From assembly GCA_039630055.1 (NCBI GenBank), contig JBCNVN010000016.1:10795-31354 (forward strand): a DNA stretch of 20,560 nucleotides, given 5' to 3'. A program made the position numbers. The DNA comes from Candidatus Caldarchaeales archaeon (lineage in GTDB: Archaea > Thermoproteota > Nitrososphaeria_A > Caldarchaeales > Wolframiiraptoraceae). Shown in pieces: positions 15,001 through 18,000 of the stretch (the first letter of the stretch is position 1; the number at the start of each line of letters is the position of its first letter).

Positions 15001-18000
15001 GAGAAGAAGCCTTAACCTTTCTCATAAACTATCTTCTCAACTTCTCTTAATGCTCTTTCGAATAGCTTACCACTTAAGATACCTTTATCGAGAGCCTGTT
15101 CGAGGAGTTCTTTATCAATCACCTTAGGTTCACGGTCTGGAAGAGCTACAACATCTATCTCTAAATCGAAGTAATGTATCTGGTCTGGATAGAATGCAAT
15201 AGGTGTACAGATATTGTAATATGTGCCCTTGAGAGTTCCAGAGAAATTATAGTAGCTCGTCTTAGCCCACATCTCTAATCTTCTAGCTTCTGTTACAGCA
15301 TAATCTCCTACATGCTTAGGTAAACCTAGACCATCATATACGCCGGAACCCATAATCCTTCTAAGAATCTTAACGGTTTGATCACTTCTCCATGTAACTT
15401 TTCCAGGTCCGAGAACTATCCTTCCACCATTAAGTTTCACATGTATTATCTTGATCTTTGAGCCAAGTCTAGGAGTAAGCTGTTTAACCTGTTCTTCAAA
15501 CATCTTATCCATCTCACTAGGAGATACTAATCCTCTCTCTACCAGGTCCTCCGCGAAGCTGACCATACTCGATAATGCTTCTCCTCCAGCTCTACAATAG
15601 TGATGCCATGGAACAGTATATGCTATACTAGATCTTAGCTCATCAAGCTTCTTCTTAGCATCGACTGGAAACCCTAATCTAACATGTGGGATAGGTTTAT
15701 CCCTCCGTAAAACGATCAAATCTTCAAAGAATTCCCTCATAACATCAACTATAGGCTTAACTGCTTCCTCAGAGCCTTTGACCTCTGCGAAATGCCTATC
15801 GGTTGAGTCTACTATTGTCGCATCAGGCTCAGAGGTTATGTCCTCTAATCCAAACCTCTCTACTTGGGACTTTGTAGGCTTAACTATCTTAAACCCTTTA
15901 TCTATCAATAGCTTGGCTAACGCTGTAGAGTATATCCCTCTAATCGAGACCTTCAACTCCTAATAAATTGTAGATAGCTCTCCTATAACCTTAATGGCTA
16001 GCTGGTTTACATATTACCACTTTAAAACACTAGGAGGATGAAGACTGCCCCGTTACAGTTCTAGGTGGTTGTGGTAGTTCCTTGATCTTTTCTTTTACTC
16101 TGACCGGCCAATCATCGAACTCGAAGCCGTGTCTTGCGAGGAAGCCTGCAGCCCACCTAGTCAATCCATGACCTACACACCCAGTCCACAACTCTCTATT
16201 CTTTACTTCTTTTATCTTGAATGCTTTAACATAGAAGTCTCTATGAACTGATGCTGCCGTGATCTCCAGCCATTCTGCTCTATCTCTCGGCCCTCTATAA
16301 GGTAGATAGACTTCTACATCTAATGTAGGTATCTTCTCGGTGCTCGATATATCTATTAGACGTTTAGATGCTTCTTCAGGGGAGAGGAAGAATGGGGCTC
16401 CAGCTACAACCCTCCACTCCATATCCAATACTCTATCAACTAGTTCAACGGTTAGATCTGTCACCTTGTCTCTTATCTCGACAGTCTCTTCCGGACCTGC
16501 TAAGAATACCATCTCCATCCTCCAGAACTCGTTCGTTCTAACCAATCCCTCAACTCCTCCACCCTCGTTTCTCCAAGTCCATCCACCTAGAAGGTCGAAA
16601 GCCTTGATCGGTAACTCTTCCAACCTAACAATCTCTCCAGAGAAGTATTGATAGAATGGTGGACATTGTACGGCTTCTAGAACATATCCAGGCTCTTCTA
16701 AAATATTCTTCAGCAAGTCTCTCCTCAACTCTCTCCTCAAAGCATACTCTCTCTTGAATTCTTCAAACGCAGTGGGTTCTCTCGGTGGAGCACAGACATA
16801 GAATAACCCTTCAGGAAGATGTTCAACATATGTTGAGAGCTTCTTAAAGACTTCGAAAGGCATAAGTCTGGGGAACATCCATTCTTGGAACCCTAAAGGT
16901 TTCGCAACATATTCTATTATCAGCTCGGAGAGGGTTCTAAGTAGGGTTGTCATAGGTGCAGTAAAGATCCATTGTCCTCTACCAGGATAACGTCTAGCCC
17001 ATCCCAGCCTCTCAGCCTCTATAGATACCTCTCCACTCAATCTGAATGTTTTCTCTTCACCTCTCTTTAAGATGGTGCCGAAGGTTGCAAGCTTCTCTAC
17101 GGGACGTTCTTCAACCTCCTGCACTCGGACCAATCTTATCGTCCGGTCCACTATCCTTTCACGAATATCATGGTCGGAGAGGTTCTCGAAGACTAAGATT
17201 AGTGAATCATCTTCAGAAGATAATTTAACGACTTCTCCAAGCTTCTCTCTAGCCTTCTCTAAACCTATATGTCCTCCATGAATCTTAACGGTAAGCTTCT
17301 CTACAACTATATCTCGAACTCCAACCTTCATGGATGGTCCAATCCTCTCAGCAAGAATATTCTTGAATCTCAGAAGAGCATCATGTGCTCTAAGCTTTCC
17401 TCCAGAGATTATCTTAAGCTTCAATCTCTTACCTTCTCCACCATACCCCACTATGACCGCAGTCTGGCTTGCTTCTCCAGAGACAGTCTTCCTAAACATC
17501 TCGTTAGCTTCTCTAATCACCTCCGATATCTGAGTAGCCAAGCCACCTACATCCATCGTTAACTCGAGATATCCTTCTAGCTCAATCCTCAACTCCATGA
17601 AGCCGCCACTCAAGCTAAACATCCATATTCAAACTTAAATAAGTATTTTAAAGTTTGAATAAATAATTGTTAGATCAATCATCTTATGATGATCTATGAT
17701 AAGACTGTTTTAAGGTTCTTCATAATAGCTTGTCGAATACTGAGATCAAGATGATCTTTCAACATGTTGATGTTTATAGGCTCCTGGTAAGACTCAGATA
17801 TAGACATAAGATAGATACAGGAATCTCTAGAAGACCTCTCCAAAGTCAACCTTTTTAAACTTCTATAAATTATGTTAAGAGAGAGGGAAGATGTCTTTCA
17901 GAATGAGGTTGCCTAGTGCAGACTACTTTTCAGATCTAATGAAGGCTGTGCAGGCCGTAGTTGATGAGGGGACTTTCAAGATTACAGAGGATGGTATCAG

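Follow-up and report, generated by a model that had tools for sequence, protein, structure and literature searches.

A type-2 seryl-tRNA synthetase as the only recognisable SerRS of a non-methanogenic Caldarchaeales archaeon, and its alternation with the canonical enzyme

Introduction

Methanosarcina barkeri carries both types of seryl-tRNA synthetase (SerRS), canonical and type-2, in one genome. Structures of the type-2 enzyme include PDB 3w3s ('Type-2 serine--tRNA ligase'), which we take to be the Methanopyrus kandleri protein, and 2cim, 2cj9, 2cja and 2cjb, presumably all from M. barkeri. The two types catalyze the same reaction on the same tRNA through a common class II core. As stated in the SerRS passages of a 2024 review, the N-terminal domain of the type-2 enzyme has a fold unlike the coiled coil of canonical SerRS, its recognition of serine is zinc-dependent, unlike that of the canonical enzyme, and the form is 'confined only to methanogenic archaea' (PMC10817482), a wording that a preliminary description of the present locus had cited and that does stand in the review. 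The corresponding entry of AARS Online names the family 'SerRS-A' (PMC11580382). The relevant part of Fournier et al. 2015 treats ThrRS and SerRS, each with a rare and a common version, under the heading of 'invasion followed by sorting', with the rare SerRS in methanogens only and its common counterpart in TACK archaea (PMC4427996). No report of type-2 SerRS outside methanogens was found in the searchable literature, which excludes subscription papers and supplementary files, and the accessible portions of PMC9499178 and PMC8762117 do not discuss SerRS types.

The window considered here is a stretch of 20,560 nucleotides from the metagenome-assembled genome (MAG) of a Caldarchaeales archaeon from a hot spring, a non-methanogen as judged by the lack of any MCR_alpha match in its genome. 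With a probability of roughly 0.85, the type-2 SerRS encoded in this window is the cell's sole, zinc-dependent SerRS, and its presence reflects an ancient gain followed by lineage sorting against a vertically inherited canonical gene. The kind of enzyme is known and in part correctly named in databases, which limits the surprise. What is new concerns the age of both types in the order, their differing histories, the sources of the versions found in one family, the standing of methanogens as a single branch, and a tRNA that does not track the enzyme.

The type-2 enzyme of the window

The protein is predicted to belong to a known kind, the type-2 (SerRS-A, 'methanogen-type') seryl-tRNA synthetases. 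The preliminary description had called it full-length on the basis of Pfam and PDB matches, and those figures were reproduced when the searches were run again (Table 1). The PF18490 match scores 114.4 bits (cut-off 25) and spans profile positions 1-158 of 162, and the PF00587 match reaches 33.2 bits (E 7e-08; cut-off 29.3). PDB 3w3s aligns collinearly, as a single match from residue 10 to residue 524 of 530 (E 3.5e-99), with the same two-domain layout and zinc-ligand positions, and 2cim aligns over residues 6-519 (E 1.6e-78). Identity to the Methanocaldococcus indicus SerRS is 39% over 523 residues, and the Atlas model of the enzyme (pTM 0.73) matches a 'Type-2 serine--tRNA ligase' cluster with TM 0.78-0.80 over 498 residues. 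The window enzyme differs from 3w3s in its non-methanogenic host, in its place in a separate clade common to Nezhaarchaeales-like lineages, and in falling below the NCBIfam equivalog cut-offs (503.8 vs 611 for NF002120; 437.7 vs 489.55 for TIGR00415). These models seem to be tuned to the methanogen clade, and such a cut-off is an annotation threshold, not a structural feature. It also differs from canonical SerRS (TIGR00414, with its PF02403 arm): PF02403 is absent, the N-terminal domain is unrelated, and the TIGR00414 match, confined to the core (residues 313-472), scores no more than 27.2 bits against a cut-off of 301.65.

In the 2cim alignment, Cys320, Glu370 and Cys482 lie opposite chain residues Cys326, Glu375 and Cys481, which, after subtraction of a 20-residue tag, are presumably the zinc ligands Cys306, Glu355 and Cys461. 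These three residues, together with Arg351 and Glu353, which by position we take to be motif 2, are each invariant across the 111 aligned type-2 sequences. The conservation claimed earlier for the ligands is thereby confirmed, the three codons were verified in the DNA, and the predicted site displays the Cys-Glu-Cys ligand set of type-2 SerRS. By homology to the solved enzymes, the protein would act as a dimeric class II synthetase and use ATP to activate serine; zinc held by the Cys-Glu-Cys set would recognize serine, and the N-terminal domain of ~160 residues would bind tRNA-Ser in place of the coiled coil. Its substrate would be a tRNA-Ser with a long variable arm and discriminator G73.

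The coordinates 16030..17622 given previously for the gene are already those of the window, with no offset to subtract. Because the alignment of homologues begins at residue 9, translation may in fact begin at the ATG at 17596-17598 (522 aa); the TTG at 17590-17592 (520 aa) was the choice of one gene caller. Judging from the position of a predicted TATA-like box, the serS mRNA may be leaderless or carry a short leader. A search for sequencing runs gave three DNA runs of hot-spring metagenomes, all from a single study, and no RNA data set.

Table 1. Features of the serS locus, in window coordinates
Feature	Position	Strand	Basis or remark
Type-2 serS (predicted)	16030..17622	-	530 aa counted from first ATG
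N-terminal tRNA-binding domain, residues 11-168	17119..17592	-	PF18490, E 6.3e-33
Catalytic core (class II aminoacyl-tRNA synthetase), residues 312-489	16156..16689	-	PF00587; includes Arg351 and Glu353
Cys320 codon TGT, predicted zinc ligand 1	16663..16665	-	Aligned to 2cim ligand Cys; invariant 111/111
Glu370 codon GAG, predicted zinc ligand 2	16513..16515	-	2cim alignment; invariant 111/111
Cys482 codon TGT, predicted zinc ligand 3	16177..16179	-	2cim alignment; invariant 111/111
TATA-like box TTTAAAATA	17644..17652	-	Read in the sequence; ends 21 bases upstream of first ATG
PCNA gene, divergent neighbour of serS	17891..18655	+	Pfam PCNA_N, PCNA_C
DUF402 gene, directly downstream of serS	15012..15956	-	Block to GAPDH and PGK syntenic in genus g3

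Alternation of the two types

Across the 76 genomes available for the order, which also make up the class-level sample, PF18490 occurs in 38, representing 8 of 15 genera, and PF02403 in 34, all from genera g4, g6, g7, g10, g12, g13 and g15 (genera, families and genomes carry our own handles, g, f and G). TIGR00414 exceeds its cut-off in 32 of the 76 and matches one further fragment clipped by a contig end. No genome holds both types, and four hold neither (G065, G070, G023 and G020; completeness 66-91%). The genus-by-genus alternation that had been described for the order thus holds on a repeat of the searches. The PF02403 matches of 26-28 bits in genus g3, listed earlier as unresolved in three genomes, most likely do not mark canonical enzymes: they lie in open frames of 459-473 aa, one per g3 genome, and no TIGR00414 match in these genomes rises above 42 bits. 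The single such ORF that was read, that of G047 (439 aa when counted from the first ATG), encodes a coiled-coil protein, has hydrophobic stretches at the N-terminus and near residue 345, and was rejected as a SerRS.

The pattern is not peculiar to the order. In a sample of 401 genomes from the phylum, the type-2 enzyme is present in 94, the number reported before, and the canonical enzyme in 292; 15 have neither and none has both, as established by comparing the genome lists by eye, with per-family sums that never exceed family size. Type-2 genes are found in 38 of 161 genera, and genus g80 includes one genome of each type. The alternation extends across the entire phylum sample, and the earlier interpretation needs widening rather than correcting. 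The M. barkeri arrangement, with both types together, is therefore without a counterpart in the 401 genomes searched here.

Type-2 enzymes were also retrieved by protein homology search, from which the named methanogen sequences were taken as well, in MAGs that NCBI labels Bathyarchaeota, Asgard, DPANN and Hydrothermarchaeales. A contig search with the single protein returned 28 loci, close relatives only, none of them a named methanogen. The resemblance to the scheme of Fournier et al. 2015 lies in two deeply diverged, equivalent forms of which close relatives keep either one; the difference is that the rare form here occurs in 94 of 401 TACK-type genomes and is sorted inside single families. 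Considering these genomes and the additional MAGs, the methanogens-only statements in the SerRS passages of the review and of the 2015 paper (PMC10817482, PMC4427996) are outdated.

Histories of the two genes

The preliminary description had named the missing phylogeny as a caveat, and gene trees for both types and a species tree from RpoA and RpoB have now been made. Within the order, the type-2 sequences of families f1-f3 fall into a single clade (UFBoot 100 / SH-aLRT 100), sister to those of f35 plus f29/f36 (100/99), families whose named records are Nezhaarchaeales and Nezhaarchaeota MAGs; the type-2 gene of f1-f3 is placed nearest to such Nezhaarchaeales-like lineages. Canonical sequences of f1-f3 likewise form one clade (98/94), sister to f5/f56/f58 (97/94), and the RpoA+RpoB tree has the same three families as sister to the organisms. 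The canonical gene thus looks vertically inherited. Since in f1-f3 each type makes up a single, well-supported clade in line with taxonomy, both genes would go back to roughly the ancestor of these three families, and both appear to have been sorted later within them, the switches numbering at least three. The species tree, quickly built from two proteins, leaves g4, f2, f3 and the rest of f1 as a polytomy, and both gene trees are concordant with it at all resolved nodes. The type-2 tree is unrooted, as outgroups share only about 150-200 alignable core positions, and the direction of type-2 transfer rests on the absence of type-2 from sampled sister lineages.

Family f4 stands apart, as it seems to carry differently sourced versions of both types. 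The type-2 enzyme of its genus g14, which has 32% identity to the window enzyme, groups with Bathyarchaeota, Asgard, Woesearchaeota and Hydrothermarchaeales MAGs (100/99), and the canonical enzyme of g15 groups with f19 (100/99). By these placements the order is home to two unrelated type-2 lineages, methanogens are one type-2 branch among many, and 'methanogen-type' is a misnomer.

The preferred reading can be set out as a series of events. Canonical SerRS would have descended vertically from the ancestor that the order has in common with f5, f56 and f58, and a Nezhaarchaeales-like type-2 gene would have entered before the radiation of f1-f3. The two genes would then have coexisted for a while, or moved among very early members of the order, before each lineage retained one, a non-orthologous displacement with at least three switches; f4 would have acquired both of its versions elsewhere. 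A long period with two genes sits awkwardly beside the 401 searched genomes, not one of which holds both types.

The most serious rival is repeated replacement, in which the ancestor of f1-f3 had a single type and the other later spread among lineages of the order by biased gene transfer, each time displacing the resident gene at once. This would fit the absence of both-type genomes among the 76 and the 401, from which the two-gene state seems short-lived, and replacement from outside did occur in f4, where the g14 and g15 versions are foreign; the one genome of each type in g80 points the same way. Within the canonical tree, f3 is non-monophyletic, with g13 grouping with f2 at 83/88, and the gene-to-species distance ratio between f2 and f3 is compressed, 0.64-0.77 vs 1.2-1.5 within families. 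Over their whole range, 0.6 to 2.4, these ratios do not discriminate between coexistence and early transfer. However, at each node that the species tree resolves, the two gene trees concur with it, and between-family distances are large in the two genes, with medians of 1.09 and 0.98 changes per site and no pair near zero. Any transfers must consequently have occurred close to when the families radiated, a stage at which the two models are difficult to distinguish. Repeated replacement is accordingly a real contender, though one we lean against.

Alternatively, it could be type-2 that is the older, vertically inherited SerRS, for the order or perhaps even the phylum as a whole, with canonical SerRS arriving from outside. 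The presence of type-2 in 8 of the 15 genera of the order and, across the phylum sample, in 38 of 161 would suit such a history, as would an unrooted tree that groups many lineages of the phylum before the methanogens. Yet f5/f56/f58 are sister to the canonical clade of f1-f3 just as they are to the organisms in the RpoA+RpoB tree, and these sister lineages are canonical: f5 has type-2 in 0 of 56 genomes and canonical in 55, and G086 (f5), G377 (f56) and G397 (f58) each carry the canonical gene with no type-2 match. An older type-2 gene is on this evidence improbable.

Beyond the sorting of an anciently gained gene within the order, a broader proposal can be offered tentatively, as one that could well prove wrong. 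Type-2 SerRS may be a deep, pan-archaeal second lineage whose diversity among TACK, Asgard and DPANN archaea exceeds that among methanogens. In Caldarchaeales a single ancestral cell line would have kept it alongside the canonical enzyme while the three families radiated, before lineages discarded one or the other; the strict rule of one SerRS per genome would suggest that joint upkeep is costly. If true, the origin proposed for the rare SerRS, by transfer into the ancestor of methanogens from a lineage now extinct, would have to be re-examined with living donors in mind. That idea is in any case now testable against a wider living diversity.

Probable sole SerRS of the genome

That the type-2 enzyme is the only SerRS found had been claimed before, and repeated PF02403, TIGR00414 and PF18490 searches bear this out. 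No canonical SerRS was found in the genome: the best PF02403 match (21.2 bits) lies inside an 808-aa ORF, and the best TIGR00414 match (25.9 bits) is the type-2 gene itself, the one occurrence of PF18490. Absence from this single genome alone is weak, as the MAG is 91.88% complete and rpoA1 is missing too. The genus as a whole shows the same, with type-2 in 8 of 8 genomes and canonical serS in none. Together with the lack of both-type genomes among the 401, these searches indicate that the type-2 enzyme most probably acts as the only SerRS of the cell.

A different function would be conceivable if the protein were a SerRS-like paralogue, serving as a carrier-protein ligase or in tRNA-Sec or other tRNA-dependent biosynthesis, with the true SerRS in the unassembled 8%. 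The MAG does have real gaps, the score is below the NCBIfam equivalog cut-offs, and the protein weakly matches amino acid--[acyl-carrier-protein] ligases (NF005479, 52.9 bits; PDB 4h2w and 3mey, E 1e-06), whose SerRS-like core aligns at residues 358-514. These ligases are, however, 346-residue chains that reach only query residues 250-514 and leave the tRNA-binding domain uncovered, whereas that domain is complete in the window protein. Canonical serS is moreover missing throughout the genus, and the phylum-wide counts (both types in 0/401, neither in 15/401) follow the pattern of a housekeeping replacement, not of an accessory paralogue, which leaves this explanation very unlikely. The specific assignment as an amino acid--[acyl-carrier-protein] ligase was rejected, given the presence of the tRNA-binding domain and an NF005479 cut-off of 357.

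Gene neighbourhood

The pairing of PCNA with type-2 serS recurs in related type-2 genera, the two genes being adjacent in G062 (g5) and two ORFs apart in G045 (g3). In G059, from the canonical genus g4, PCNA stands without type-2 serS beside it, and no remnant of that gene was detected at E 1e-5 across 13.8 kb; the neighbourhood is rearranged, and hence there is no clean deletion scar. A binning or assembly artefact, with the contig derived from a co-occurring type-2 archaeon such as a Nezhaarchaeales member of the same spring, might be entertained from the 2.73% contamination of the MAG and the Nezhaarchaeales-like identity of the nearest outside relatives, but is the least credible explanation of all, as by far the nearest relatives are in the own genus (72-84% identity, including three Candidatus Geocrenenecus species), the flanking PCNA, DUF402, GAPDH and PGK genes are syntenic in g3 at 53-76% identity, GC content is even over the window, and the type-2 gene tree follows taxonomy.

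tRNA-Ser and annotation

For the genome of the window, aragorn reports 26 tRNAs without and 42 with introns, among them several doubtful Ser, SeC and Pyl calls, and the comparison was limited to tRNA-Ser(GCU), the only trusted call. Its discriminator is G in all 34 genes recovered, from 12 genera; none was recovered for g9, g14 and g15, and the g4 tRNA, mis-folded by aragorn, was excluded from difference counts. Between type-2 genus g11 (G024 and G025) and canonical genus g12 (G034), 1 of 87 positions differs. The tRNA thus appears not to track the enzyme type. As the two enzymes serve practically the same tRNA-Ser, we propose that they may be interchangeable. The order can in this sense be regarded as a natural experiment, in which an essential translation enzyme with either of two unrelated tRNA-binding domains has been displaced while its tRNA changed at one position in 87.

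Database annotation, which the preliminary description suspected might already carry the name, does so in part. Among 120 listed relatives, 18 have names at NCBI: 7 are 'serine--tRNA ligase', as suspected, and the other 11 are 'aminoacyl--tRNA ligase-related protein' (6) or 'hypothetical protein' (5). With 11 of 18 relatives not named as SerRS and scores under the NCBIfam cut-offs, genomes such as this one can seem to be without an essential gene.

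The SerRS of the window and of its genome

The gene serS2 of the window encodes a predicted type-2 seryl-tRNA synthetase (SerRS), the 'methanogen-type' or 'rare' form marked by PF18490. The protein aligns over its whole length to the solved type-2 structures PDB 3w3s (E 3.5e-99, residues 10-524) and 2cim (E 1.6e-78). In the alignment with 2cim, Cys320, Glu370 and Cys482 lie opposite its three zinc ligands, by the ligand numbering of the structure paper. Together with Arg351 and Glu353, these residues are invariant in 111/111 aligned type-2 sequences, a set that covers the order, the phylum sample and named proteins in databases. 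The protein sequence is also in the ESM Atlas, where its model (pTM 0.73) has a TM of 0.78-0.80 to a 'Type-2 serine--tRNA ligase' cluster. The top two NCBIfam matches are type-2 SerRS models, both scoring below the equivalog threshold (503.8 for a cut-off of 611, and 437.7 for one of 489.55), and identity to the SerRS of Methanocaldococcus indicus is 39%. The assignment as a type-2 SerRS holds, with activity and zinc dependence predicted from homology. Since homologues start at residue 9, the ATG at 17596-17598 may be the true start of serS2; the TATA-like element upstream would be compatible too with a leaderless transcript that begins at the first ATG, and the start codon is uncertain.

Features of the window (positions in the window unless given as residues)
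Feature	Position	Strand	Size	Remarks
Type-2 SerRS gene (serS2)	16030-17622	minus	530 codons	open frame, counted from first ATG
Type-2 tRNA-binding domain PF18490	residues 11-168			Pfam, E 6.3e-33
Class II core PF00587	within the same 530-codon protein			Pfam
TATA-like TTTAAAATA	17644-17652			upstream of first ATG of serS2
GAPDH	12073-13104			adjoins PGK; Gp_dh_N E 3.3e-33, Gp_dh_C E 1.3e-64
Two GH130 genes (mannoside phosphorylase family)	6190-9483	divergent		Pfam
ORF, lysine-rich	19015-19926	minus	303 aa	overlaps next ORF
ORF	19919-20200	minus	93 aa	overlaps 303-aa ORF

In the genome (a MAG of 1.54 Mb in 80 contigs, 91.88% complete), PF18490 occurs once. The PF02403 coiled-coil arm of the canonical ('common') SerRS reaches at best 21.2 bits, within an 808-aa ORF; TIGR00414 scores best on the type-2 gene itself, no separate canonical SerRS was found in the genome, and a search of it for MCR_alpha found none. 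Absences in this MAG alone are weak evidence: rpoA1 has no match at all in it, compared with matches in 72/76 genomes of the order. Because the assembly has such gaps, the absence of a canonical enzyme is argued from the genus, where 8/8 genomes carry type-2 and 0/8 canonical SerRS. At both levels the data agree with the preliminary description, which took the type-2 enzyme to be the sole SerRS.

Distribution of the two types

Among the 76 genomes of the order, 38 have type-2 (PF18490) and 34 canonical SerRS (PF02403), none has both and four have neither (G065, G070, G023 and G020, 66-91% complete). TIGR00414 exceeds its cut-off in 32 genomes of the order, with one further fragment truncated by a contig end. 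The types occupy complementary genera, type-2 in g1, g2, g3, g5, g8, g9, g11 and g14 and canonical in g4, g6, g7, g10, g12, g13 and g15, with genera of both kinds in all four families. This is the genus-wise alternation proposed earlier, and both that observation and its interpretation hold. Within the phylum sample of 401 genomes, the counts are 94 type-2, 292 canonical, 15 neither and none with both, the two genome lists having been compared by eye and per-family sums never exceeding family size. The most recent switch seen is in genus g80 (family f33), where G199 is type-2 and G303 canonical (99% and 98% complete), a good place to seek the mechanism of replacement.

Weak PF02403 matches in g3 had been left open. 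They correspond to one ORF per genome (open frames of 459-473 aa; L190 on contig C45 of G047, L191 and L192), and these exceed the cut-off once their pieces are summed. The one of the three that was read, from G047, has 439 aa counted from the first ATG; it is not a SerRS but a coiled-coil protein, hydrophobic at the N-terminus and again near residue 345. False SerRS calls can thus arise when PF02403 is used alone.

Type-2 SerRS outside methanogens

The nearest named records to the window's protein are an Aigarchaeota MAG (84% identity), three Candidatus Geocrenenecus species (73-79%) and Candidatus Benthortus (71%); next come Nezhaarchaeales MAGs (55-56%). Among the 120 relatives listed, 18 bear NCBI names (7 'serine--tRNA ligase', 6 'aminoacyl--tRNA ligase-related protein', 5 'hypothetical protein') and a further 11 the JGI name 'seryl-tRNA synthetase', so part of these type-2 proteins is already named SerRS in databases. 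Fournier et al. 2015 (PMC4427996) found the rare SerRS in methanogens only, TACK archaea having the common form, and proposed transfer of the rare form from an ancient lineage to the methanogen ancestor. The AARS Online text consulted calls the family SerRS-A and gives no range. Searchable full text, a scope that excludes subscription papers and supplements, yielded no published report of type-2 SerRS outside methanogens. The window's enzyme belongs to an already known kind, and its added value is evolutionary and practical: the 'methanogen-type' label is a sampling artefact, and curated annotation thresholds miss these type-2 SerRS proteins.

History of the two genes

The type-2 gene was placed in a quick tree of 94 rows (20 of the order's 38, 38 of 40 phylum loci after two partial ones were dropped, 10 of 28 named loci and 26 source-named proteins) and a careful tree of 51 of these (supports are ultrafast bootstrap/SH-aLRT). 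Families f1, f2 and f3 form a single clade (100/100), with families and genera grouping within it. As sister to this clade the tree places f35 together with f29/f36 (100/99), groups in which the named members are Nezhaarchaeales and Nezhaarchaeota MAGs. The g14 enzyme of family f4, just 32% identical to the window's, lies far from these, in a clade (100/99) that it shares with proteins of Asgard, Bathyarchaeota, Woesearchaeota and Hydrothermarchaeales. Its closest relatives (43-53% identity) are MAGs labelled Bathyarchaeota, Promethearchaeota, Jordarchaeum, Freyarchaeota, Woesearchaeota, Aenigmatarchaeota and Hydrothermarchaeales, and named methanogens reach only 35-38%. All eight named methanogen sequences fall in one clade in the quick tree (SH-aLRT 99); they are from Methanococcales and Methanobacteriales, one being labelled a Methanomicrobiales MAG. 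The six retained in the careful tree group at 100/99, and methanogens are one branch among many.

For the canonical gene (quick tree of 73 rows, to which the order contributed 32 and the phylum sample 41; careful tree of 42 of these), f1-f3 again form a single clade (98/94), here sister to f5/f56/f58 (97/94), and g15 of f4 stands apart with f19 (100/99). As a species proxy, RpoA+RpoB (2385 columns, 29 order genomes plus 5 outside; quick tree, SH-aLRT only) recovers a monophyletic order (100), sister to f56/f58/f5, with f4 basal. Its f1-f3 clade (98) comprises four unresolved lineages, namely g4, the remaining f1, f2 as (g8, g9) + (g6, g7), and f3 as g13 + (g10, g11, g12). Both SerRS trees are consistent with its resolved parts, and SerRS type read on it changes at least three times within f1-f3. 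A fused rpoA is a known trait of Nitrososphaeria-type lineages. In the RpoA/RpoB regions compared (loci L196-L229), every order representative whose gene is complete has it as one fused ORF (open frames of 1254-1383 aa), as do f5, f56 and f58; it is split in f12 and f35 (A' of 887-892 aa), in agreement with this tree.

Because the canonical gene shares the organisms' own sister group, it looks vertically inherited in f1-f3. For the type-2 gene the sister group is foreign, and this gene is missing from the sister lineages sampled (G086 of f5, G377 of f56 and G397 of f58 are each canonical without a type-2 match, and type-2 is found in 0/56 genomes of f5), so it was most likely transferred in before the f1-f3 radiation. 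From that point on, the divergence of each gene has roughly matched that of the organisms, with between-family median distances of 1.09 and 0.98 changes per site for the two genes, no pair near zero, and gene/species distance ratios of 0.6-2.4.

Two scenarios fit. In the favoured one, to which we give a probability of roughly one half, both genes would have been carried together through the f1-f3 radiation and one then lost in each lineage. Possible, if more tentative, is that the incoming gene spread serially among very early lineages of f1-f3. That no genome has both types speaks against an extended two-gene phase. Compression of the canonical f2-f3 distances (ratio 0.64-0.77) and the joining of g13 to f2 (83/88) hint at one early transfer, and family f4 illustrates that replacement from outside also occurs. 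We infer that in this order both SerRS types are about as old as the f1-f3 ancestor, with sorting by genus afterwards. Contamination as the source of serS2 is countered by synteny with the divergent PCNA gene, adjacent also in G062 (g5) and two ORFs away in G045 (g3), where the entire block through PGK is retained; this synteny also supports vertical inheritance across the type-2 part of f1. In the canonical G059 (g4), PCNA has different neighbours, and a serS2 remnant sought there was not found.

tRNA-Ser and genomic surroundings

Tracing tRNA-Ser(GCU) by BLAST (matches in 73/76 order genomes) and aragorn gave 34 genes from 12 genera, all with a long variable arm and G at the discriminator position. 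Variation tracks families rather than enzyme type, and G024 and G025 (g11, type-2) differ from G034 (g12, canonical) at 1/87 positions. Such near-identity implies that both enzymes read essentially the same tRNA through unrelated binding domains, and a SerRS swap would be tolerated because the tRNA is shared. In the window's genome the only clear tRNA-Ser recovered is Ser(GCU) (C9:2034-2121). Aragorn with intron search labels several other genes there Ser(cga), Ser(gga) or SeC, and their sequences resemble intron-bearing tRNAs or tRNA-Leu.

The flanks of serS2 are housekeeping genes, with PGK, GAPDH, a nucleotidyl transferase, a membrane protein and DUF402 on one side and PCNA on the other; the GAPDH-PGK pair is syntenic in g3. 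GC in the window is lowest at 19015-20200 (0.337 over 19001-20000); the two overlapping ORFs of this segment have no Pfam match, and it may be foreign or mobile DNA. The second GH130 protein (633 aa) has two matched stretches as well as weak GH43 and GH32 N-terminal matches.
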